Source: Hydrolagus colliei
Taxonomy: Eukaryota
Reading direction: 5' to 3'
Assembly (NCBI GenBank): GCA_035084275.1
Contig: CM068744.1
Span: forward strand, 4,774,001-4,838,000
DNA length: 64,000 nt
Positions 4,080 to 22,557 of the stretch are shown piece by piece; the first letter of the stretch is position 1, and the number at the start of each line of letters is the position of its first letter. Both the position numbers and the translations under genes were made by a program. Below the pieces are notes generated by a model, which worked only from the letters and a program-made list of their open reading frames with translations, was not told where the DNA came from and did not search any database.

Positions 4080-6629
4080 TTATCGTACCACTAGGCAAGA
4101 AACACATAATTTAGATGGTCCAATGCAGTCATCATGGCAAAATGCCCCACATCCTTTGCATATGATCATGGCTTTAAGCCTGCAGTAGCACTTGGAAGGA
4201 GCGTCCTCCAGGTTGCCGCCTTCGGGGAACATTTGGACAGAGTTGCCGTGGCTGCCTGTATTTATGGACTGACCAGCGGGAAGTGTCGTAACAGTCACAG
4301 AAAAGGATACCATATTTCCAGAGCTGTTTGAGACTTGGCTGTACACAGACATCTCTGTGACAGCAGAGCAATGGTTCATCTGTGGCGTAGAAGGAACGCC
4401 GATGCCGCTGCCGTGAACGGGCTTAAATGCGAACTGGGAACTTGCTCGGTTTCCGTACGGGGGGAACTTTTGTTGGTGCAATGGCTGAGAGGGTTGTTGA
4501 AAGCCTACAGACAGGTTCGGTAACCTGTAAGAGTCTGGATAGTTTGGATTTAGTTTGCCACCAGTCTGAGCAAAGTTAGATTGCAGTCCCTGGTTGAACT
4601 CCTTTGCCACTTGTGCGGCAGACAATAAAGGCGTGTTCTCCTTTTCAGTTTGTCGATAATCATGCATTGGAGCTTCTACCTTCAAATATCCACTGGACAA
4701 ACTGTCCATGCGAGCGCAGGCAGTATTGTCACCCATCTGGGGAAAGTCGTGCGAGACTGGTTCGGTTTTGATTAATATAACCTCAGGATGACAGGACTTT
4801 GACCTGCTGTTCAGTTCTGGTGTGTGCTGAATGCTGCTATCAGCTGTTTTCGTGTTCCACTCCTTGATTTCCTTCTCGGCCGTGTGTGCCAGACCATTCA
4901 TACGAACCCGCGTCTCAATGTCTTGAACATAGGCACGTTTCCAGCTCTCTGAACCCCTTCCGTAGGTGGCTATGTTGAGCAGGTAATGACCAGATACAGC
5001 TGGCTTCAGGGCAGACTTTGTCCCCATCAAACCAAACCTCGACCTCTGACCAACGGAAACCCCTCCAGAGGAAAATCCTGAGCTATTCACTCCGTGCTGT
5101 AAAGATTCACAAACAGGACCCAAGATTTGACTCTGGGCGTTGCTGCTGCGGTCCTGAGTGGGCCTGGTTGGCATTTCTGGTTCCACGTGTCCATGTTCTG
5201 CGTTTGTGCTTCTCCTCTCTTCGTTGGTACAACTGTGCTTTGAGGTCTGTTCAAGCTGTTCCCATTGATCAGTAGATGCAACAACTTGTCCTGACATTGT
5301 CTGAGATTGTGTTCTTCCAATAAGGTCAGCAGTTACCTTACACAACTTCTGCATTACAGTGTTGTCATTTCTGACCGTCACCGTTACCGCTGTCCCTTCA
5401 TCAACTGATGTCTTCACCACATCATCTGGCACGGCTTTAGAAATCTGATTAACAGGTTTAAGCTCTACTTTGGTCAGAGGCTTCGGCAGGAATTGCACCA
5501 GTGGCACTTCTTTCCCTCGGAGTAATTGTGCAACCAGTGGATTGTTAGCCGGGATGGAGGAACCCGACTTCACTACGATTCCACAAACAGATCCTTGTGG
5601 TTTAAGGCTGGGTACATCGTGCGGAGTGCAAAGCGACTGTGCAGATACAGCAGAAGTTACTGCAGGACTTTCTAGATTTGAATTTGCTGAGGGAAGTGGG
5701 GAGGCCACTTTTAGAGTTCCAGCTGTGCTCCCAGATGTTACAGAAACAGAACCAGCTGTTGCGGCCACCCCACTGGTTGAAGATGGAACTGGAAAGTTGC
5801 TTTGTTTATTAATGGACGTGGAGGCCAGCTGGGGATCAAAGGACAGCTTTCTCCCCACATTTGATATCCTAACATTAGAGTCTGTGGAGGGTTGTTGGTT
5901 CGTCACTCGACCTTGCTTACTATGCACGGTGACATTTCCTGAGCTTTGAGTTACTGCATTTGCAGTCTCGGAGTTTCTGAGGACCGATACAGGTTTCAAA
6001 GCCTCTCGCAAGGTAGGATTGCAAGTCTGCTTCACAGTTTGTGTCTGCAACGTAGCAGGAGAGGCCTTTGTTGTACTCATATTTGTTATCATTGGACTTG
6101 GCTTTGGGGACACAAATACAGTCACGGAGGGTGCTATGTGCTCACTCGATAATGTCAATGCTGATTTTGTGACCGCTGTAACTGACGCTGTGCATCTGTT
6201 GGGGCTTGCGGTGTGGGCTGCAGACACAGATTGCGCCAGGGTGGCTTGCTGTAATTGTGTTCTTGAATCCAGATTGGTTGCTGGCTTGATCGTAGCCTCT
6301 TCCAATGGTTTGGACAGTTGTCCTGGAGAATCAGACAAGGACCCTCCAACACCTCGCCTGCCTCCAGTTCTGTCCATTTCCACTGCACCGCCTGGTGGCC
6401 TGACTTCGCCCATTCCGCCCCCTCCTCCCGGGCCAGGGCCTGGCACGGCTCCGCCTGCAGCTGCTGCGGCGGCTGCTCTCTGGGCTTTGGCAAGCTGAGC
6501 TTTTGCTTTGATGTCTGCGAGAGTCCTGGCTCCGGTTCTCCCTGGACTAATGACGAGGGGTGAGAAAGTGGCCCTTGGAGAGACCTGACCACTCGGACTA
6601 GGGATGGATCGGATTCTTGAGATTGGAAT
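4080..6629 (-). CDS. ASXL2: ASXL2 last coding exon (ASXM1, ASXM2 with LxxLL, C-terminal PHD finger)
   Basis: Acceptor ttacag|ATT at 6629. Encodes IPISRI...[25 protein letters not shown] (ASXM1), [20 protein letters not shown] (ASXM2) and [36 protein letters not shown] (PHD). 2550 nt, phase 0. Confidence 0.97.
6155..6580 (-). CDS. ASXL2 TF overlapping +1-frame ORF (putative ribosomal frameshift product, 141 aa, EHNY motif)
   Basis: The +1 frame is open from the slippery site to a stop at 6155-6157. Encodes [10 protein letters not shown]...[12 protein letters not shown]...QNQH*. Confidence 0.75.
6579..6586 (-). other. Putative programmed frameshift site AG_GUC_UCU
   Basis: Zero-frame codons CAG GTC TCT (Q-V-S) give the RG_GUC_UCU motif reported for ASXL2 and for arterivirus -2 frameshifting. 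Confidence 0.7.
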
Positions 6630-7157
6630 CTGTAAGGCAATTGAAATTGGGAACAAAATTAAAATACAAATACAAATGTTGGTATTCTCAACCGAATGTA
6701 GTTTTTTTTTAAATTTAACAAATCACGTTTGGATTTTATTATTAATGTAGTTTGGGTTTTTGGCATTTACAGCAATCTAAAGGGAAATTGTAAAGAACGT
6801 GATCCCGAATTCGTTTTCGGTAACAAACGAAAACGTTTGTGTGCATTTGTGTGGTTACTAGGTAAGGAAGGATTGAGCCAAGCTGTGACAGTCACTCAGA
6901 CAAGGTTTCAGAGGGTGCCTGGCAACCATTAGCTCCATTTGAAGGGAAACTTTCAAGAGAGAAGGGAGGAAAACTGTGTTTTCTTTAAATCATTCCACCA
7001 CCACCTTGTAACTATTCAATACCTAGTGTTGAAACACGGTCAGATCAACCCACTTTAAGGAATCTCTATCAAGGTAATAGTGCAGGTGAGTTATATTCCG
7101 TAGGAGATTAACCTCTTTGTATATTGTGCACCGTGTCAGAGTTTCGCGTTCATATAC

Positions 7158-7920
7158 CTTGAGAGGTGGGACTTTGGGTTCTGGTGTTGGAATTTTGTTT
7201 TCAGGAATGTGCTTTGGTGGGGTCCGAAATGACTGCTGGTCCATGACCCTGGGTTTTTTCTCAACAGTGAGCAGACCCTCTCCTTCATCGTCGCACTTCC
7301 TCTTGAGTCCCTCTGCGGTAACTTCCATTTTTTCTGTAGAACCTGCCTTTGTCGGTGGCTCTTGTTTGCAAGGTTCAGATGTATTGTTCTCCACCAGTGC
7401 TGAAGCCTCGGGTCTTTTGCTCTCTAATACTTTTGCACTCTCTTCCTTCAGCTGTGGTTTGGGCTCATTTAGATCTAATTCTGGCTTAGCAAACATTGCT
7501 TTAGCCTCAGACTCTGGAGAGGTTATGTGGCCTACTTTTGCAGTCTCTTTATCCTGCGATACTTTTGCAGTATGAGGGTCAAAGTCTACGACTTGTTTCT
7601 CTGATAGGTTAACCGTCTCCGCGGGTCTGTCTGCTTTAGGGGGTTTCAGATCTGCAGGTGATTCGTTGACAGGCTCTGCTGAAGAATCTGCTGCCTTCTC
7701 TGATATCTCATCCTTTTCTACCACTTTTATTGTTTCTGCTACTTTGGCCACAGCCTTGATTGTGCTTTCTTCTTTTGGCTCAACAAGCGATTCCGCCTTG
7801 ACGGCAATTTCTTGGGCAGCTGGCTGGATAGGGCTCTGTTTGGGTGGATGACATTTACTGTCCTGGGCACTGCCACGAGATGCAGTCAGCTTTTGGGAGT
7901 CTTCCAGACTTATACCAGAA
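7158..7920 (-). CDS. ASXL2: ASXL2 penultimate coding exon
   Basis: ttgcag|T TCT GGT ... AAG|gtatat. Encodes SGISLEDSQKLTA...LKRK...EKKPRV...KVPPLK. 763 nt, phase 2 to 0. Confidence 0.95.
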
Positions 7921-8749: not shown

Positions 8750-9902
8750 TATTAGATGTTGCTACAGTGAGAGGAAATTAAACCGATGCCTAGAATTAGA
8801 ACACCTGAGTTAAAAGGAGTTAATTGAAGTTGAGGCACAGATCTGCCATGATCTAACAGAATGGTAGAACAGGCTCAAGGGGCTAATCTTGTGGTCCTAT
8901 GAGAGGCTATGAAAATTGGTCACATTTACACTGAAGAAAGGAATTAGCAAAGATCTCAGTAAAGTTTTAGGTCGTCTGTGAACACCAATCACCATGCCTA
9001 AGAGTATCTAAATCAGACAGAGTTTCAGATATGCATTCCACCTAGACATGGACATTTCTGTGGTTTGGAATAGAATGTGCAATCTCTTGGCAGATACACT
9101 CTGGGATCCCTGCATTGGGATCCCTCTGGCATTTAACCAGCTAATACTGTATAGCCTGTCATTGAAAACACACCTTGTCCAGCTGGGACCTTCCTAAAGT
9201 TAAGGATTTGGCTTGTAGGGTCAACAGGAGCCGAGTGGGAAGAATCCCTACCCCCAAAGCTTTCATAATTCTAAGAGTAACCTTTCACCAGAAGAATCTG
9301 TTCCTGCCAGGATTACTGAATAATAATCATTATGGGCAGGAATACTGTAATTGGCAGGTGAATAGGGAGCTATGACATGGCACCTATAATTCTGAAAACT
9401 GAAATCTCAGAACCAAGGAAATTGATTTTGTGCTAATTTAGAAAGGAAATAAAATTCCATTCAGTTTATTCTCAAAAAGCTTGGACGAATGAGACTGGTG
9501 AGAGAAAGGCTGAACAGTTAAATCGGTGGTAGGTTAACTAGAGAATTAAAAAAAAAAAAGAAAAGCGTACTGGAATCCATTATATTTAAACTCTGCATTC
9601 ATTTCATTTCAAATTCACAGAAGGTGACTGAGTGATCATATAAGACAATGTGACACAGGTCACTGAAGCTGTTGTGGAAAGAAATTGAAGGTCAAGATCT
9701 CATTGGCACTCATTTAAATACATTCACAGGTGCTTTTATATGATTCCGATCAACTAATAAAATAATGAATAAATGGGTACAATTCAGGGGCATTTTGACC
9801 AAACGGAAATGAGACCCCCTTGGCGAAATATGATTATTTTATTAAAAACGAAAAAAAATCAAAATGAACCCCTAAGAAAATAACTGGATAAAATGTCCTT
9901 AC

Positions 9903-10008
9903 ATTTGACCATAGTAATTCTCATAAAAATGCTCCTTCCACTGTTCCACTTTCTTTTCCTTTTCAATCTCCTGTCGTATCCTCAGCTGCATCTCTGGAGT
10001 AAATTCCC
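9903..10008 (-). CDS. ASXL2: ASXL2 exon, DEUBAD/ASXH C-terminal part
   Basis: caatag|GG GAA ... CAA AT|gtaagg. Encodes [35 protein letters not shown]. 106 nt. Confidence 0.96.
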
Positions 10009-11126
10009 CTATTGAGAAACAAATAAAAAGCAGGGATTGACAGGATGAACAAAGTTCAGCGTGGACAAGAATGGTGCATTTGATATTCCTTCATCCCCGG
10101 GTGGATAGAGAAAGGCAATAAATCTAAAATACTCTATTTTGTCAGTGTTTCCCCAATCCCAGTCCACAATGTGCAGATAACATTGATGGTTTCAAAACGT
10201 TCGGTTCTATACTTTGATCTTATCTTATGATCTGTGTTATGATTTTTTTTAAACATATGATCTTGGTATTGGTGAACCCAAGACCATTCTGGCTTTGTCA
10301 AGGTTAAACCCTGAAGCGGCTTCCACAAACCAATTGCATGCAATTGGCCGGTCTGCTAGAATCAGCTTCACTTTGCAAAGGGGCCTGGCATTTATTCTAT
10401 CATTTGGTGAACAGGATTCTGCAGGTTATCCAAAGCCACGCAGTCAAACTGTACACGGGTGGAGACAAATGAGTAAAGCGCTGCCTTAGGAGAAACACAG
10501 CAGTGAAGCCAAGCATTGCGCCTTTGAGGTGTACTTGAAAGCAGATTCCAAAAATAACTTTTGCTTGCTGTTTCCATGGCCACAGCCTGCGTTTAATCTC
10601 CATTCACACTACCTCTAAACATGAAAGACTTGCCACCAATGTACATGCAGTACTTTAGTCTTCATGTAGCTACCTGGAGCTTATCATCTTAAAACAGGAG
10701 AAAGGGGACCTCCCCTCTGAAATAGCTTTATCCAAGTTAGGATAGTACACAGTAGAAAGTTGCTTCAAACAGAAATAATGCTCAGAACTGAAACTTCATT
10801 CAGTCAATTGAGTTTGAATCAGATAAGGATCAAATGTGCTCATAAAGAATGCATGACAACATGCTGGGAAAAATTCAATCCAATCTTCTGAGAGCACGGC
10901 TATGTGAACCTCTGAGATAATGCAGGCCAACTCACCACCGGCTGCGTCTCCTGACACCTAAGTGTTAGCCCCAATCAAAAGGAAGACATTTAGCCCACTT
11001 TCCATCACATCATTCCCTCATCATAACGTGTAAAAATAAACACAAATCTCACACTCAAAGCTACAGAAAAAAATCATCTCAATTGGGCAATTTTACAAAA
11101 TGTTTCCTGTGTGCGAGAGGCAGATG

Positions 11127-11148
11127 CACACACACACACACACACACA
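11127..11148. repeat. (CA)n microsatellite
   Basis: Direct reading. Confidence 0.9.
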
Positions 11149-13214
11149 AACATTGTAGCCTATTGCTGTACAACACCAGAAAAGACAATTTTGGTCTTCT
11201 GCCTGGTTGATTATCTAAAGAAAATGCTTTGCTAACTTTCAATCCCACAACCTCCAAAAAACAGACTGTCTATTTAAAATACCCATATACTGTATATCTG
11301 CTGTACACCGGGAACAAGCACTTCGACCAAGGAATGGTGTGTGGAATGTGGACACGTAGTCACAAAAAATAAGGAAAATGAAAACAATTAACTATCCCAA
11401 ATGTCTAAAATAGTTTCCTATTCCTAACATTAAAATAGTGGATACAGCAAAGCTCCATTGACAGGGCACACTAACACCACATTAACGGTGCCTTTAATGG
11501 GCAGTATTCCCAGTTTGTTGGCCGCACTAATGTATATTCAAAGTACAATTTACAGAAGATTTAAATATTTAACCAGCCTTCTGATTCTATATCACATGGA
11601 TGAATAACGTTGTTCTGAAGTTTCTAAACTGGACTCACATCAGAACTCGAGATTGCTGTGACCCATATATTGTGATACATTTCTTCTATGTGAACAGTGA
11701 TACCATGAGACTACATTGATGTGATGTTACCCTCCAATAAGAATCTACCCTTAGAGTGGTCTAAGCCACTCATAACCTCAGAAGACAATATGATCGAGTT
11801 GGGTGAAGAAAGCTATTGTAAGTTCTGAAATCAGCTGATTTGACAATACAAACCAGTGTGCTATTTGCCTTGTTTATTGTTGCCTCACACTGTTAATATG
11901 TTAACATGGCTGAGCGATGAGTCAATCACAGCCCTAGAAAATCAATGGAATAATAAATTCAGTGGGCATCACGAACAAAAAAAAGTCTCATTGTCTCAGC
12001 TTTAAGGTTTCAAATTTTGGGTAATTTCTTTTAATTCTTTGTTTTTCAGGAAAGGCGGAAAATTGGCTTTTAAATGAAAGAATTTTTCCAAAATTCTGCA
12101 CGATCTTCAATTTTAAGAAGCTGCAGCAATGACTTGAGATAGTTGTTTTTAGATAATACAAACTGCAAGGCAACACAATTACACATAACGTTCATTTGGA
12201 CATTTCAACAATGCTTCTCTGGAAGAAATAAAAGAGTCAATAGAAGTGGGTTTTGGAAAGGATCTTACAAATTGTATAAAAACGATAAGGGAGAAATTAA
12301 ACTGAACATCCATCGGTGGAAATTTTTACTAACTGTTACTAAAATGGTCAAATAATGCAGTTAGTTAAATTGGAAAGCAATTCAACGTCTGATGAGAGGA
12401 AATCACTAAGCTATTTTTCTAAGTAAATGCCAACTTATTGAGTTGAATCAGCAGGCTTTACAGATGCATGATACAGATGGTTCCCGGGCTGCTCATTTTG
12501 AAAAGCAATCTGCTGTAAGATGTGATGATGTCACTTATAGAGTGATCTAACTCTCTGATCAGCATTTATGGGGTACTAGAGAAGCAATTTTGTGTTAAGG
12601 ATGACTGGTTGGATTCAAAAAACATTTATAACATATCTGATTTATCGGACAACCAGTAAGAAAATCTTCATCACGTGTGGTGAAAACATAAGAGAATGTT
12701 AGGATATATGTGGCACTCTGTGTTATAGTCATACGTACAAGCACACATAGATATTGAATATCCACAAATAGCTTCTATTTGTAGGAGGGAGAAGGAAAGA
12801 GGGCAGGAGATTTTGCCTGGGGTTGGGCTGGCACAAAAGAAACATGCCAACACTATATTTTACTTTGTACCCAAGTCTTTCAGTTGTTAATTAAGTTAGT
12901 CGAATACCATTTGTACCAAGTATTTCCAATTATAGGCTATGCTAACCCTAACAAAATAGAGTCAGGGTTCTTATATCCAAAACGGTTTTCCAAGTGGACA
13001 GAATAGATCTGGGGATACAGATGCAAAGATTAGAAGGACTGCTGCAGTTGGGGGAAAAAAGTCACATTGGGGCAAATAAGAAACAAGATTGTACATGTAT
13101 ATACTGTACATATGTATCTGTCTATATTTTATATTTACAAAAGTAATGAGGTGGTGCTGAATCAGTGGCAGACATGGGTTAGATGAACAATTGTGGTGGT
13201 TTGGGCACCACCAT

Positions 13215-13590
13215 TACAACAACAACAAAATTACATTTGTATAGTGCCTACTACATCAGAAGGATGTCCTAAGGCACTGAACAGTCAGTGTTTTATAACC
13301 TTTTTGGGGATCGAGGAGGGTGGAGCGAAGCAGGGGGAAGTGGGATGGGGACTGACCGATGGCACGGTCAAAGAGGTGGGACTTGAAGGAGGCTAGGGAG
13401 GGGGTGAGTTGGAGGGAGTGCGGGATGGAAAGGGATTATAGAAGGGATATCAGAGTTGAGAGGAAGTTCTCACTGTGGGACACTGCTGTGCGCAATTGGC
13501 TGCCGCGTTTCGCCCACAAATATACAGTCAAATTAAATTCACAGTGTATTCTGTGAAGCGCTTTGAGATGTCTAGAAGACGGATTATTAA
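13215..13590. mobile_element. L2 3' tail (minus) followed by SINE fragment (plus)
   Basis: ACAACAACAACAAAATTACATTTGTATAGTGCC tail near 13216; SINE core TGTGGGACACTGCTGTGCGCAATTGGCTGCCGCG near 13475. Confidence 0.7.
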
Positions 13591-14492
13591 GTTGTTGCTT
13601 GCAAAAGTGGATTTGTACTCTCTGGTTTAGAGGGGATCTAATCAAATTACTACATCAAATTACAAGAGTTGATGGGGGTGGGGTGGGGGAAGAGAGAAAA
13701 AAGATAATAATCGGCCAAACCTGTCTAAATTACTACCTGAAGCACAAACACTTTATAGAAATAGATGTTTTTACCGAAAGAGTTCATCGGACATGGAAAT
13801 GTTCCCTGAAGCTGCGTCAATTAGAAAAACATAAAAGCTAATTGCTATATATAAAAAGGACATAGAGAAGATGAAATTGGATAATAATAATAATCCTTGC
13901 ATTTGATACAGCGCTCTTCACATCTTCCAGGCATCTCAAAGCTGCAGATGGAATACACTGCAAAGTGAATCGATTGTGATGTGAGTAAGGAAGCCCAAAA
14001 GGGAGTAAATATGACAAAGACAATATAGTTCAAATAGTTTCCATCTGTGCTGAAATTTGTAGTTTACATGAATATGTGTTTTCATAGGTGTCTGAATAAG
14101 GTATCAAAATGGAAAGAAACATACACAGCAGCTCTGTATAGTTGTGTGTTTTTTACAAGGCTTACAGTTTCATGTGGTTTTGGAGACGAATGGAGCTACA
14201 ATGCTAAATAGATCCAGCTTTATGTTTTACTGACATGCTAGTGATAACACTGCAATTGCTGAACACTTTTCTGTAATGCAGACTTACTGCGTTTGAAAAT
14301 AACGGTGATGGATTTTGGTGAGCGGCCAAAGACTTCTATTAGATTTCCTCTTAATCTGTCTAATCCATCTGTAGTTTTATAGGCATTTCATTAGAACTAT
14401 ATTCTCATGTTGATGGCATCTTAAGAAAAGTTTATTTTCCCCCAGTGTCCTGACCATTCATCCTCCAGATAACCAAGCTGTGAAACATTGTT

Positions 14493-14578
14493 GTTAGGTG
14501 AGTATTTGCAGGTTAGGTGAGTATTTGCAGGTTAGGTGAGTATTTGCAGGTTAGGTGAGTATTTGCAGGTTAGGTGAG
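14493..14578. repeat. 19-bp minisatellite GTTAGGTGAGTATTTGCAG x4.5
   Basis: Perfect tandem copies. Confidence 0.95.
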
Positions 14579-15636
14579 ATGCTCACAGATGCTCTTTGAG
14601 ACAACCTCTTGATGTGAAACGTGCTACAGTATAACCAATGAAAGGATCATTTGTATTATTTCCCTTTTCACCATCACAGTGGACCTATACTAGACTGTCT
14701 CCATAGTGAGCAGATCTATTTCTTTCATTTAAAACCTTTTATTTTTGGAAAACACTGAAACAGTTGTCAATGCATCAACCCCTGGGCCACACCTTGAAAC
14801 CTCCCTTGCTGAGAGTTAAACCATCCCAAATTATTTTCTGGTGCTAATAGGTGTAATTCAGAGAGAGTATAACAGCACTCAACCTACTTCTCTTAGCAAA
14901 TTGCACAGGCTTCTAACTGTGGTGGATAAATACACTCCTATCAGTTAGAATTAATTTGGACCCCACAGCGTATTGAATGTCTTGGATATTTAAACCTACT
15001 GTATTAATATCATCTTGTACGGTCTCTGCAATTTTAGTCAAACCTGCTTTTAGCCACTTCCATTTTGTTTTCTCTACTCTGTATTTCTAAATTCACAGTA
15101 AGGCACTTACCCATTTTTTCCCCAAGCAAAACATATGCTTAAGAGTGTGCAGAGAGCAATAATTTTGTTCTGATCAAGTGAAGGTAACTGTGCCGCAAAA
15201 CGTTTCTGAAGTCATATCAGCATCAAGCTGGAGTTGACTAATGTGTGTTCTACAATGTTCAGAAAATCTGACTCCTCAAATGCCTCATTGTCTTACAATT
15301 TTAGAATGTGCAGAAGTTTAGAAAATTCTTAAATTGAGCCTTAATTTGGAAACTTTGCTGCAGTTCTTTTTCAGATCAGTTTCCAAATTGAGACTCAATT
15401 TAACAATTATCTCCAATTTTTGGACAATTAGACATGTTAACTTAATGGTTCTACAGCTGAGAATCTGTGAATGTATAATTTTGGTTTACTCCGTGATTGG
15501 TTGTCTTATTTTGATGTATTGTTTGATTTTTGAAGGCCATCCTGACATTTGACTCCAAAAGTGCTGATCACATTCTGATAACTTACTCAAGTGACTGTTC
15601 TTCATGCATGAGGTTAAATAGTGAGTGCCATCGGGC

Positions 15637-16327
15637 TAGGGAACGGCGATATATCGATATATCGCTAAAGCCCGATATATTTTTCATATCGATATGCCGG
15701 TATAGACATTTTTAAAATATCGATATATCGAAAAAACGATATATCGAGGTAAAAAATCGGGATGCGAGCACACTGAACTACAAGACCCAGAATGCTCATC
15801 TCTTTTCACAATGCACAGACCGAGATGCAAAGCCGCCATATTGTATTCACAGTCCTCGAATACAATATACAGGTATGCAAGGGCTGGGGGGTGAGAGAGA
15901 CGGCTGTGGGTGGGGGGGAGAGAGACGGCTGGGGGGGGGGGGGAGGGAGAAAGAGACGGCTGGGGGTGGGGAAGAGAGATGACGGGGGTGGGGGGTGCGA
16001 GAGAGGGGCGGGGGGGGGGGGGTGGGGGGAGGAGAGAGACGGGGTGGATGTGATAATATACAGATAGATAGAGATGGGGGGGATGTGAGAGAGGAGAGAG
16101 ACACACAGACACACAGACAGAAAAACAGAGATGGAGAGAGTGAGAGAAAGATATTTGCCTCCTGAGAAGATAGGCCCTGAATGCGCGCGCTCCCGGAATG
16201 CGCGCGCACTCCGATGCGCGCGCGCATGCGCAGTACGAAAAACCCGAAAATGTCGATAGATCGGTATATGTCGATATGAGCCAACCGATATATCCATATC
16301 GGGAAATTCCCAGATCGCCGTTCCCTA
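15637..16327. mobile_element. Non-autonomous hAT DNA transposon (691 bp)
   Basis: Perfect 14-bp TIR TAGGGAACGGCGAT / ATCGCCGTTCCCTA. 8-bp TSD CATCGGGC at 15629-15636 and 16328-16335. Subterminal CGATAT repeats. Confidence 0.93.
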
Positions 16328-19300
16328 CATCGGGCTATCTGTCTTAAATGGGTATCATCGCCAAGACAGATTCTGTTTTCACAACACTTTCCTACAGAGC
16401 TCATCACATAATGATCAGAAATGAGAACACTTTTTTTGGCCCTAGTTCAGAAGTATTGTGGCTGAATTTCTCACATGATTTGGGCTTTACTGATTGAGGA
16501 TCAGACGTTACCCATTATTAGGTACATCTTCAAAAAGATACTGCCTCTTTAATGGTTGCTTCATCAACAGTGAGTGCCTCCATATAGTGCATTTCACTGA
16601 CAATGGATCCAGGTTATTAATGAATATGTGCCCACCTTTATGCCAGAGTAGATGCAAAGAAAGAGGAAGAGTTGTATTACATTATTTAATCATGCCCAGG
16701 TACAAAACATCCTATTCTTCACCATTAACAGTAATTTGAGTTGCAAAGGGCAATTTCAGGACAAAGATTAGGAAGATTTTCTCTAGCCTGATTATAGACT
16801 GGAAATATTTTCCAGGAAGGGTGGTTGCGACCAGGATATTGGACTTGTTTAAAAAACAGCTTGATGTGATGATGAGACGGCAGTTGTGTGAGTAATCAGA
16901 AGGGATGAGATTAGATTAGGCATAAAGGGTCTTCCACTGATCCAATTTGTGTCTTGACTTATGATCATGAATTGGGTTTGGAAATTTAACTAACTTTGGA
17001 AGACAATTGACGTTTTTAAAAATTGAACTTATTATTTGGGAGCCAGAAATTAGAATGACTGGTGACTGTGTCGAGGGAAATCTTTATTTCCTTATCTGGT
17101 CTTGGCCCAACTATTTGTAGCCATGCAAAGCTTCCTGTCTATGAGTCAGGCATTGCTGCAGTAGAGTATCCCTAGGAAATGAAAAGGTTATAAAAGAGCA
17201 TTTTTCAAAATTAAATTATGTATGAATACCGACAGACTGGCTTAAGGTGACAAATCCTTTTCTGCAGTGATATTGTAGTGTGAAAAGATTGGCCCGTGTT
17301 AAATATTCAGGTTAGTTTGGACAAATGTAATTTCGAATTACGGGGATGTGAACACAAGCGAAGAAACTTGCTATCTCTCTATCCTCCTCTCAAACCCCCT
17401 CACACTACTTCACATTATATTGATTGCAGCAGCTACGTTGCTATGGGGAGGACAGCAATCTTCTACACTCTAAGGGAGGGGAATCCAACCGAGAATCCCC
17501 CCCCACCAATTACTCCTCATCACCTCCTAAGCCAATATTCTTAAGAGACCAGGAACAATGTCTTAGAATATAAGTAGAGAAGAAGACCATTCAGCCCCTC
17601 GAGCACAATAGAGTACTGAAAGTTGTGTTGCTAAGGTTACCCTACTGGATGTCTGATCAATATCAACGTTGTAGTTTTCTTGCAGAATTGACAATCGGAC
17701 TGAAACTGAGATCATGATTCCTATCAATTGTGGACAGTAAATGAGGTCCTGCCTTCCACTGCTGCTACAGATGGCAGCAATGCGTCAACAGTTTTGACTC
17801 CAGGCCTTTTGTGAACGAAATGAGGAAGCTGCAGCAATCCTGGAGGAAGAGCAGTCAACCGTGAACCCAAATTAGTAACTTCATTGCAGAATAAGCACTG
17901 TGAAGAGACAGTGGTACAGAGATTACAATCATGCAGTGAGCTTTCCTGTAGTAATAAGAATATCCACAGCCTGGAATTCTGCATTCATATAGTGGATCAG
18001 CACTAAATACAACTTTCCTGGTAGTTCAGTCAGTTAAACACCATATTTAGACCAGCGGTTCATTCAGATTTTCAATCTTTTAAGTCATCTAAGTTTAAGT
18101 CATCTAAGAACGTGGACGAGAAAGAGAGAAGTAAATGGAGTCTTGTTGGGGCTACATTTAAATGAATTGGGATTGAACTCGACTGAAGATTCAGTTCTGG
18201 AACAGTCAGACAGGTTTGCAGTAATCTAGTGCATTGTTCATCGATATGGCAGTCACATTAAAGAGACTTTTAACTGGTTCTTAGCTTTGTCAACTGATGG
18301 CCAAATAGCTGAGCCTCGTCGAGATGGACGAGAAAAACTGCAAACCTCATCAGTGCTTCATTTGGAACGTTGGGTGCTTACCATGATATCAAGGAAATTG
18401 AAATGAATTTTCCCCGCAACTCCACTTAACAGTATATTCTGTGAAGCGCTTTGAGACATCTCAACAAAGTGGTAAAACGGTATATCAAATGCAAGGATTA
18501 TTATTATTTTTATAGAAACACAAACTTGTTCTTGTGAAATAGTTAGCCAGGTAAATTGTGGAAACATTATGCGAAAACATCACACATCACACTTCTTCCC
18601 CCAACCAATGCACCACTACATGTGAAGGAGTTGCCAACCATTATATCCTAACCTTTTTTTTTAAATCAAAAAAAGCAGATGGCTTGTGGGAGTATCTTTC
18701 ATCTTGCTTCCAACTACAATGAAAGCTTTAGATACCAGTTAAGGTTTCTTCTTAAAATATAGTCGATGACAGTTATGAATTCAACACGTTAGCACACGAT
18801 GTTTACGCAGGACTCAGTGCCCTGCAGTACATCCCACATGTAACTAAATCAATCATCTAAAATAATAACATAACACAAGTTTACTGTTTCCTTATGCCAT
18901 ATGTGTGGGCTGGAAAGTTTGGTAATGTTTTGGTTACCATCATCATTAAAAAATTACCATTTTAAATGTGTGGTCACCACAATATTTTTTAAAAAATGGA
19001 ATGATAATTCTTTGTCTCTTAAGCGGGGTCTCCTTGAAGATGAACTGGCTTCAAGGTGTCTGGCAATGGAATGTCGGAATCGAGCCTCTGTGGTCTCTAG
19101 TCTGGTTCTTGAGTTGTGCGGGTCTGTGGTATTCCTGGGCACTGCTGATAACAGCACAGCCAGCCCAGCTCATGAGCCAGGTCAACAGAAAATTGCGTAA
19201 ATATGTGCCAAAAATTGTGGGGATATTTTTACAGAAAATTGTGAAGACTTTTTTTTCACAAATTTTGCAGAAAATAGCAGGGAGTTGATGGGCTATTGAA

Positions 19301-20099
19301 AGGTACATTTTTACTGCCAACCTACATTTTTCTCTCTATTGATGCAAAGTAAATATGAAGAAATAACATATTAGATTGTTAGAAAATAATGCTTTCTTTA
19401 ACAAAATCTGTGTGGGCCAGCGGAGTGGGAATGGAGGAAAAATACCAGCGTGACTACGGGGTTCCAGGAGATCTGGAACCGCCTCCTGCCTCTCGTCACG
19501 GAGGAGGGTGTTTGTAGCAAATCCGTGGAAAAATTGCAGCCACACTTTTCTACTGCCACACACTCTGGGGTCCCAACGCCTTGGCTCTTGCCAATCTGCG
19601 TCTAATATTTTCCGGAATTAGGTAAGATGGATACTCACCTCCAGGGTGAGTGTTCATTCCATTCCAACAATCTCCCCCAACCACTCCATCACACCCTTGC
19701 TTTTCTTCCTTTCTGTCTTTAAGTCCCACCTCAAATCCTATCTCTCTGAACACACCAATGGCCAACACCCCTTCCTCCCCTCCCCCTTCCTTTCTCAGAG
19801 TCTACCCATGTCCCTGTTAAGCACTCTGAGATATTTTCCTATATGAAGGACTCAAAAAAAATCTAACTTGTTTAAGACTGTGGCTTAAAAGTACTTTAAT
19901 TCATGATGTCAGTCATGGAAATATTTTTCACAACACATCGCCAAATGTGCATATCCTCTGCATCTGCATACAAATTACCCTTCTGTCAGTTTAGATTAGA
20001 CTTTAATATAGACCACTGTGATTCTCATTTTTCAGCAGAGATAATGCAGACGAGCACTATTCTTTTTTTAAATGTATAAATTGGATAAAAATTACTCAC

Positions 20100-20196
20100 C
20101 CTCTGATAAGCGTTCCTTCCAGCCCTGGGCCGCAGAAGTGAAGAATTCATTATTCAGTGCAGAGGTACTCAAACGCATCAAACCATCTGTACCCAC
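20100..20196 (-). CDS. ASXL2: ASXL2 exon, DEUBAD with NEF motif
   Basis: tgatag|GTG ... GAG G|gtgagt. Encodes [32 protein letters not shown]. 97 nt. Confidence 0.96.
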
Positions 20197-22200
20197 CTAT
20201 CAGAAAAATTCAAACAAACATTAGCAAAAGTGTCACGAAAGCAGCTTCTGCTACAATCCCTACAAAAAGATAACAACATGTACGCACCGCATTTAAATAG
20301 GATAGAAACAAGATCATGAGCATACAATTTCCTTTTAATTTACATGTGTTAATCACATTTTCAATCCAGTTCTTTCACCCTGTGTTGTTGCTTTCACGCA
20401 TCCTCTTCCTGCCACCATGGCACAGCAAGAAAACATTGTGTTGCCAGCAGGACTCATATGGGGGAGGCTGATGCCCCAGACTGGAACTTCATTGGGTGAT
20501 TAAAAAGTATTTTGGAATCAACAATGAGGCCATTTGTGCATGATCTCTAGAGAAGCTTTTTAATATTCCATACTAGCCTACAAAATTCACAGTTACTACA
20601 CATTACAGTGGCTTTATAGCATAAACTACTTGGATGCTCAAACTGGCTGAGCCAGTGCACAACCTCCATGGCCTTGCCCCACTATACCTTTACAACCTCC
20701 TCAAATCTGGTTTCTCTGTCCGCTCAGCAAAAACTGACATCCCCCACCCCACTCTCGGTGGTCAGGCTTTCAGTGTTTCTGCTCCCACTCTCTGGAACTC
20801 CAGCCTGAATTGACTTTGGCTCACCCCTTCCCTCGCCTCAGGTCCTTGACTTCACTTTTGGTGTTTCTCCTGCCTCACCTCCCACTCCCTCAGAGCAACA
20901 CAACAACAACAACTTTGATTTATATAGCGCCCTCCACGCCGGACGGAGTCTCAGAGCGCTTAAGATCGTCTTAAGACAGCGTCTCAGAGCAAGCACTGTT
21001 GCACACAACAAAATCCCACAAACAGTATTCATATGCTTAAAATGTAACTGCTATTGGTAAATCATAGTTCTGAATCTGGAGACAAGACGATGTACATGGG
21101 AGCCATCTTATATTACATTCATGATTTTTTTGACATAAATTCTTCTGGCTTATTTACAACCCGGTTAATATGGAACCCTTTTAACGTCAGTGTGAGATTT
21201 GCCAACGCAGGTTGGCAAAATGACAGAGGTCTACATCTCTGATCAGAAGCAGTAATTAACTTGTCCATTAATGCTTCCTAGGTCAGAAAATGTATTAACA
21301 GGTGCAGAATGTCCTCAATTATATGGTGTTGCCACAGCTCTCACATTGATACATGATGTTATGCACTCTTATATACTGTACAGTAAAGCAGAATCTTAGG
21401 AAATCCTCTGTGTGAAAAGCGCTACATAAATTAAAATGTGCATTGTACATTTACTTTACTGGTTTATTCAATCATATTCACTTACATTTTTTTCTAAACA
21501 AAAAGTTTCTTCATCCAATCTTAGTTTGTTCATTTTAACCTATGTTTCATCTGTTAAACATGCACCTAGTTTAGGCATGTCATATTATTACAGGTTATGA
21601 CAAGTAGAGAGAGTTCTAATTCACTTCATTTTGTAGGTAATCCTCTTAATCCCACTTCCTTTTGGGGGTTTTCTTTTATCTCATGTGCTTTGTATCTGTG
21701 AGTCCATCAAACAGTGCATGCACTTTCATCTACACTACAGAGAATATAAAGGGGTTTGAAACTGCTTTGTTCATTAAGACGAGTCACCTCATCAAGGGGA
21801 AGTCTGTGCAAATTCTTGCAAGGACGGACAAATCAATTTTTCATATAGCAGGTTTACATCTGTGCGTAGTATCACAGAAATTACACCACAGAACAAGGTT
21901 CACTCAGACCTTCAAGTTTATTTATGCTGGAACTAATTTCTCTACTACCCTGACCCCAGTTTCCTGCTTTTCCCTCAAGAAACCTTCTAAACTGGCACTT
22001 TGGCATTGCTTCCCGACGTGAAAGGCACTATACAAATGTAATTTGTTGTTGTATATTATTCATCTAATAATTTATTTCTCTTACCCCAATTCAAATTCCC
22101 TGCTCTTTTTCCAAGGACCCTTTTATACTGTACCTCAAATATTTATTCAACGTCTTTACTGTCCATTAAGTAACCCGAGTTATGTAAGTAATCAATGTCA

Positions 22201-22557
<357 letters not shown>

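Follow-up and report, generated by a model that had tools for sequence, protein, structure and literature searches.

A UUU_CGG site common to three ASXL paralogues of Hydrolagus colliei as a predicted entry to the overlapping frame that carries an HCF-1-binding-type motif

Introduction

Described parallels to frame-shifted reading of ASXL genes come from a cellular gene and two groups of viruses. In PLEKHM2, UCC_UUU_CGG gives a +1 shift of about 1.3% (PMC11451614). At the related influenza site, changes of the E-site codon cut shifting by 40-70% without abolishing it and CGG halved shifting, UCA not being known to be among the E-site codons tested there (PMC3498833). In arteriviruses, a -2 shift requires nsp1beta, PCBP and a C-rich element (PMC5644247). 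For ASXL2, Dinan, Atkins and Firth (2017; PMC5644247) described a +1 ORF (TF) with EH[N/S]Y and a putative -2 site, RG_GUC_UCU, along with suppressed synonymous variation across orthologues in the overlap and a PONDR disorder result for human TF. The elephant-shark orthologue was already included in their set, and a reconfigured BAP1/HCF-1 complex (PR-DUB) lacking the PHD was proposed. According to the same report, ASXL3 has no conserved TF or EHxY, and neither ASXL2 nor ASXL3 has an influenza-like +1 site.

PMC11451614 describes frameshifting in ASXL1 as unvalidated, and in PMC7660087 the 2017 paper is cited for frameshifting only in the references. A recent preprint (10.64898/2026.05.28.727796) gives two-frame selection (dN/dS) in ASXL1 and ASXL2 and peptides for the ASXL1 frame; it prefers alternative splicing on parsimony, objecting that slippage would call for one mechanism in ASXL1 and another, unrelated one in ASXL2, and its main text contains 0 mentions of ASXL3. 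A second preprint (10.64898/2026.03.19.712392), whose main text leaves ASXL unmentioned, found HCF-1 to be bound by only 66 of 347 human D/EHxY peptides, the binders favouring a hydrophobic residue at H-4, a small x, an uncharged Y+1 and no Pro at Y+2. No frameshift or HCF-1-binding experiment for any ASXL was found in the literature searched.

Results

The ASXL2 gene of the window

The stretch analysed (the window, 64 kb) carries ASXL2 on the minus strand, the strand to which all features below refer. Elephant-shark ASXL2 is the best match (86%), followed by sharks and rays (52-64%), an order of similarity that points to a holocephalan, and nine exons of the window were matched to ASXL2 by tblastn. 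The coding part of the last exon (4080..6629) is supported by its ORF, the orthologue match and tblastn; this zero-frame ORF of 850 codons overlaps the motif discussed below and ends in an ASX-type PHD (PF13922, PHD_3; 4089..4241; E 8e-23), which would be missing from a TF product. It is preceded by the last intron (6630..7157; 528 nt, GT..AG) and the penultimate coding exon (7158..7920), which rests on tblastn and read coverage with loose ends at 7920. Three further exons (9896..22371) correspond by exon matches to elephant-shark ASXL2 residues 276-399, the ASXH/DEUBAD region that a TF product would keep, a label taken from PMC5644247 and from PF13919 on orthologues. The full protein, judged by its orthologue, has about 1,500 residues. 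A zero-frame EHFY lies in the DEUBAD-region exon (9934-9923); it is probably not an HCF-1 motif, an aromatic x being disfavoured for binding.

RNA reads were taken from three runs on a single sample from a close relative (27-30% of the reads of each run, 3-read threshold), and the single junction listed, from 7158 to 6629, is supported by 16 reads across the three runs. Nine of the 19 fixed differences listed for the relative fall within the open +1 run; they create 0 stops and leave the motif and both slip sites untouched.

The EHNY motif and the open +1 frame

The initial annotation had reported an EHNY motif encoded in the frame overlapping ASXL2, and this was borne out: 6262..6251 reads GAA CAC AAT TAC, in +1 relative to the ASXL2 frame. 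Its description of the zero frame as unremarkable linker is accurate for the residues, DSRTQLQQ, but misses their constraint, as [RG][TA]QL, the zero-frame pattern that an EH[N/S]Y in +1 forces, occurs in 109 of the 119 aligned ASXL2 proteins. The rows of this alignment are mutually related, and one of the original 120 was dropped for want of an anchor; the ten rows without the pattern include both teleosts and several seemingly partial or misaligned rows.

Taken alone, the four letters of EHNY are weak evidence and mean little, because [D/E]HxY matches nine times in the six frames of the window, once as EH[N/S]Y. Given the zero-frame residues, EH[N/S]Y arises by synonymous codon choice with P = 0.02-0.04. 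From UUU_C to the end of the motif, the +1 frame is stop-free over 149 codons (5.5 stops expected, 0 seen; P 0.0007-0.004); the codon-resampling null was calibrated by the stops outside TF (observed/expected 28/26.3, 52/56.4 and 63/63.4). The motif is beyond chance once its open +1 frame is counted.

Counted from the -2 site, the TF ORF (6155..6580) comprises 141 codons and a stop, with the motif at codons 107-110; compared by eye, it differs very little from the row given for the elephant shark in the supplement of PMC5644247. In the spliced mRNA sequence, the stop-free +1 frame extends over 246 codons across the last intron (6158..7423). A W-x-W...LEAGEV block in the TF frame (6350..6382) recurs in the published rows, and both the LE[A/E]G[E/Q] upstream of the motif that was noted in PMC5644247 and a Pro about four residues after EH[N/S]Y are present in the window's TF ORF. 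The motif itself is conserved among orthologues, EH[N/S]Y being found in 46 of 46 ASXL2 TF rows when counted by eye in part 9, the one part of the PMC5644247 supplement that the count covers.

A search of the TF peptide against 5.8 billion proteins gave 6 candidates, 0 of them at E<=1, and no Pfam domain was found in the TF frame. Against 1.84 billion representatives there were two matches. One (P0121, 45%) is an ASXL2 TF-frame protein with EHNY, bird-like by eye and not independent of the 2017 set; the other, a repeat protein, was judged spurious. An EHNY in the +1 frame is also present in the metagenome-derived contig L014, described below.

It is very unlikely that the TF frame is never translated and that its conservation reflects an RNA- or DNA-level element. 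Such a reading would suit the state of evidence in PMC5644247, where ribosome profiling was inconclusive and direct protein evidence for ASXL2-TF was lacking, but the zero-frame alternation between R and G and between T and A is exactly the one that a +1 EH demands, and the dN/dS support for both frames of ASXL1 and ASXL2, along with the ASXL1-frame peptides (10.64898/2026.05.28.727796), speaks for translation.

Flanks of the motif and HCF-1

Extended from H-5 to Y+3 (6242..6274), the motif has W at H-4, N at x, S at Y+1 and K at Y+2, in line with the determinants of binding in 10.64898/2026.03.19.712392. Of the 46 published ASXL2 TF rows, 44 have V, I or W at H-4 (by eye), a position occupied by I, W and I in the three paralogues of this genome. 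The flanks of EHNY thus fit the 2026 rules for HCF-1, which adds to the 2017 case, and docking on HCF-1 is predicted. That BAP1 binds HCF-1 through a related motif, as the initial annotation had stated, agrees with the N/QHxY class of 10.64898/2026.03.19.712392; BAP1 of this genome keeps NHNY (L016:1501-1523, contig C20). The further argument of the initial annotation, that the motif independently supports a functional TF, is weak as far as one motif in one sequence goes, and gains its support from the conservation and the flanks.

The upstream UUU_CGG site

An in-frame UCA_UUU_CGG (7224..7232), homologous to the ASXL1 +1 shift site, stands in the penultimate exon as a predicted ancestral entry that would give a 180-codon TF. 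Its UUU_CG core (7229-7225) is the sole in-frame one in the last two exons, which have 20 Phe codons between them, and UC[AC]_UUU_CGG occupies the same penultimate-exon place in ASXL1, ASXL2 and ASXL3 of this genome. The site precedes GUC_UCU by 39 codons, with the +1 frame open throughout. Single statistics are weak here: the chance that the stretch between the sites is open is P 0.13, and that of UUU_CG, given F-R, is P ~0.3.

At the protein level, the site column reads F[RQH] in 110 of 119 ASXL2 proteins (96 FR, 13 FQ and 1 FH). Between KRPR and VPP, the site Phe is the best conserved residue (111/119), and a second nearby Phe is also fairly conserved (89/119). Replacement in the R column of the site is by Q or H in 15 rows, by which a C-starting codon is kept, and by C, K and S in one row each, as against 14 W/C and 2 Q in a comparison R column. 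Zero-frame selection on the protein may be the cause of the kept Phe and of the bias in the R column. Both teleost ASXL2 proteins, from species without TF, have neither the site Phe nor [RG][TA]QL.

In human ASXL2 the corresponding place reads CCA_UUU_CAG, within a stop-free stretch of the TF frame, and there the +1 frame is open for only about 17 codons upstream (PMC5644247 Fig. S4, by eye). To our knowledge, shifting has not been described at UUU_CAG. In this genome, the +1 frame upstream of UUU_C is open over 142 codons in ASXL1, 66 in ASXL2 (7423-7233) and 173 in ASXL3, with chance probabilities by codon resampling of 0.07-0.14, 0.003-0.009 and 0.03-0.04, respectively; in all three paralogues this openness exceeds the codon-resampling prediction, and slippage leaves it unaccounted for.

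The same upstream openness would fit a TF frame reached by a rare alternative splice instead of a ribosomal slip, as preferred on parsimony in 10.64898/2026.05.28.727796, and +1 entry in ASXL2 of the window could be provided by sequences resembling acceptors (6322 and 6541) or a donor (7053). Nevertheless, such splicing is quite improbable. None of these joints is listed beside the 16 canonical reads (at this low depth and 3-read threshold, a minor form is possible), the W-x-W...LEAGEV block lies upstream of 6322, and comparable acceptor scores occur elsewhere in the same exon. ASXL1 and ASXL3 have no splice site of like strength by a crude matrix, the scores being based on approximate frequencies. 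Furthermore, no such isoform is present in the human annotation (PMC5644247), and a UUU_C site common to the paralogues removes the preprint's objection of two unrelated mechanisms.

The sequence at 6322 consists of a pyrimidine run and CAG in +1 phase, 20 codons before EHNY; a joint at this place was not seen in the reads. Many published TF rows have, by eye, a Gln after Phe/Pro/Leu-rich codons at a like place.

The downstream -2 site

AG_GUC_UCU (6579..6586) is an in-frame match to RG_GUC_UCU, the published putative -2 shift site of ASXL2, and is followed by the 141-codon +1 ORF. The C-rich PCBP element of arteriviruses has the pattern CCCANCUCC. It was looked for after AG_GUC_UCU and none was found, and the fold in the 100 nt after the site is not unusually stable (z +1.2). 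RNA structure after the shift sites gave z values of +1.2, +0.9 and -1.4, none notable, with two of the segments ending at the exon end.

In the published model left unchanged, ASXL2 would be entered only through the -2 slip at RG_GUC_UCU, and the upstream UUU_CGG would be an ancestral relic. The presence of the -2 site in the window agrees with this, as does its retention in all taxa but lizards and most teleosts and its position where synonymous conservation begins on the 5' side (PMC5644247), the latter counting against upstream entry; the human UUU_CAG in place of UUU_CG and the occurrence of xVS, a loose pattern, in 117/119 ASXL2 proteins point the same way. Against it, -2 shifting in arteriviruses depends on nsp1beta, PCBP and the C-rich element, the last of which is missing here by its pattern, and QVS persists in both teleost proteins too. 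In three lizard proteins both F-Q and R[TA]QL are still found, though the one lizard of PMC5644247 is without the -2 site. Moreover, given upstream entry, dual coding could hold GUC_UCU constant, as it also encodes Ser-Leu in +1. On this balance, entry through the -2 slip alone is rather doubtful.

The ASXL1 and ASXL3 paralogues

A PHD search of the genome itself gave three ASXL paralogues. ASXL1 (L005, contig C26) has UCC_UUU_CGG and a 161-codon TF with EHSY, the TF agreeing by eye with the published elephant-shark ASXL1 row. In its penultimate exon UUU_CGG recurs in frame seven codons downstream, as AGC_UUU_CGG, a possible tandem entry. ASXL3 (L006:2115-2123 and 5452-5820, contig C2) has UCA_UUU_CGG and a 147-codon +1 TF across the last intron, with EHNY. 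Its identity follows from residues 1-125 of the last exon, which agree at 95% with elephant-shark ASXL3, and from named top matches to ASXL3. The site sits at the same QSFR as in the paralogues, and the motif is flanked by I at H-4 and then by S and K. The ASXL3 DNA is that of one genome, its last-intron junction being drawn from GT/AG and the orthologous protein; in the ASXL3 RNA reads intronic repeats dominate, exon depth is below 2 and no junction was seen.

Under synonymous codon resampling, all three features (site, frame and motif) occurred together in 147 of 200,000 draws for ASXL3, in 0 for ASXL2 and in 1 for ASXL1; as a product of exact terms (0.043, 0.043 and 0.29), the joint chance for ASXL3 is 2e-4 to 5e-4. 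Passive inheritance of the site, frame and motif is unlikely because the codon identity of the paralogues is 0.39-0.52 both in and out of the overlap; a higher identity within the overlap was not clearly seen.

By protein proxy, ASXL3 has [RG][TA]QL in 13 of 16 cartilaginous rows and in 0 of 104 bony rows, and F[RQ] at the site column in 9/16 and 1/104, two of the cartilaginous rows being uninformative there; a loose [D/E]HxY-compatible pattern fits 77 of the 104 bony rows too. Five batoid proteins (P0135, P0138, P0144, P0146 and P0147; skates and rays) are without the site Phe, while four of them keep RTQL and one has RTQS, which suggests that the site decayed in this lineage or that the frame is entered elsewhere.

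The ASXL3 frame and motif could instead be chance, or a dead relic of a conserved zero-frame KHQAR[AT]QL helix, with only the TFs of ASXL1 and ASXL2 real. The motif does overlap a conserved zero-frame repeat, each statistical term is modest, the DNA is that of one genome and the batoid rows are without the Phe. However, the three features are position-specific and predicted by the paralogues (joint chance 2e-4 to 7e-4), the flanks fit the HCF-1 rules, and R[TA]QL is found in cartilaginous rows where bony rows have mostly RAHL or are divergent. Chance or a relic is accordingly unlikely, and even a relic would imply ancestral origin. We consider it fairly probable that the ASXL3 TF is, or was, a true homologue, and likely that it is a new member, contrary to the absence reported in 2017.

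Metagenome scans for orthologous ASXL3 DNA found none. A metagenome pattern search gave nine matches, of which one (L014, 720-1020) resembles the last exon of ASXL1 and has EHNY in +1; its contig presumably stems from a vertebrate host within the metagenome collection. The other eight (L007-L013 and L015), short cysteine-rich ORFs on GC-rich contigs and unrelated to ASXL, contain 10 residues identical to the ASXL motif and were judged coincidence. A forced-stop M[KNTIM] test was non-discriminating (0 in the ASXL2 and cartilaginous ASXL3 overlaps, yet just 1 in 13,890 bony ASXL3 residues), and internal AUG entry was set aside, the +1-frame AUG positions not being common to the paralogues.

Discussion

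From the frame, the motif, both sites and the junction observed in ASXL2, together with the site, frame and motif of ASXL1 and ASXL3, we infer, with somewhat more confidence than doubt, that +1 slippage of tRNA-Phe at UCA_UUU_CGG reaches the TF frame of ASXL2, with AG_GUC_UCU as a possible second entry, an HCF-1-docking tail and one ancestor before the duplications. Most ribosomes would produce full ASXL2, while a few, probably 1% or less, would slip +1 with tRNA-Phe on UUU_C (7232-7224); -2 slippage at GUC_UCU, 39 codons later, may offer another way in. Slipped ribosomes would stop at 6157-6155, in the last exon, and therefore no decay is expected. The resulting product of about 800 residues would keep the BAP1-binding half with the DEUBAD region and lose the PHD, and its tail would offer EHNY to the Kelch pocket of HCF-1, competing with or adding to the NHNY of BAP1. 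The exchange of the PHD for an HCF-1 docking site, as put forward in the initial annotation, thereby keeps its substance, namely a conserved HCF-1-type motif in ASXL2-TF and a lost PHD, but is the 2017 hypothesis (PMC5644247) and not new; the EHNY finding is a rediscovery of that work, to which it adds one more species only.

In the most economical history, the site, frame and motif would have arisen before the ASXL1/2/3 split, GUC_UCU would have been gained later in ASXL2, and the device would have been lost in teleost ASXL2 and bony-vertebrate ASXL3. That the device predates all three vertebrate ASXL genes is likely, the support from orthologues coming from protein proxies only. A wider version is offered tentatively: one +1 UUU_C slip with an HCF-1 tail before the split, ASXL3-TF still made in cartilaginous fishes, ASXL2 of jawed vertebrates, including human (CCA_UUU_CAG), entered wholly or partly at this place, and the conservation of the -2 site due to dual coding. 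Use of the upstream site across jawed-vertebrate ASXL2 is, taken separately, possible but doubtful.

Myeloid cancers and three developmental syndromes are driven by truncations of ASXL proteins. Under the 2017 hypothesis, such truncations mimic the natural frameshift product (PMC5644247). A UUU_C site that a slowly evolving fish has in all three paralogues answers the two-mechanism objection to this device, would date it before the vertebrate duplications and would add ASXL3 as third member; it also names a second candidate site in human ASXL2, distinct from the published -2 site. Neither an ASXL3 +1 ORF with EHNY nor a UC[AC]_UUU_CGG common to ASXL1/2/3 was found in print among the literature matches listed, a coverage outside which most subscription journals and preprint supplements lie. 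The common upstream site is a predicted new variant of the mechanism.

Comparison with known systems

With PLEKHM2 (PMC11451614) and influenza PA-X (PMC3498833), the ASXL sites have the UUU_CG core in common, and the product likewise drops a C-terminal part. ASXL1 of this genome equals PLEKHM2 exactly, with UCC_UUU_CGG and a Gln before the site in both. Unlike the YCC_UUU_CG pattern of PLEKHM2 and PA-X, ASXL2 and ASXL3 have UCA in the E-site, and the ASXL shift is a prediction from sequence whereas those of PLEKHM2 and PA-X were measured. The window's site is hence one that would work like the PA-X/PLEKHM2 type without being a strict member, its E-site codon not being YCC. The slippery sequence RG_GUC_UCU is common to ASXL2 and arterivirus nsp2TF, but ASXL2 lacks both the C-rich pattern after the site and the viral nsp1beta, and no cellular stimulator is known.

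The motif of ASXL2-TF resembles the D/EHxY motifs of KANSL3, DIDO1 and SETD1A and the NHNY of BAP1 in its core anchors, an aromatic or hydrophobic H-4, a small x, a small uncharged Y+1 and the absence of Pro at Y+2 (10.64898/2026.03.19.712392); unlike all of these, it is encoded only in an overlapping frame. Compared with the ASXL2-TF and ASXL1-TF of PMC5644247, the same +1 ORF, EH[N/S]Y and RG_GUC_UCU are found here, the elephant-shark TF having 138 codons against 141. Unlike in that account, all three paralogues of this genome combine UC[AC]_UUU_CGG with a stop-free +1 frame and EH[N/S]Y.
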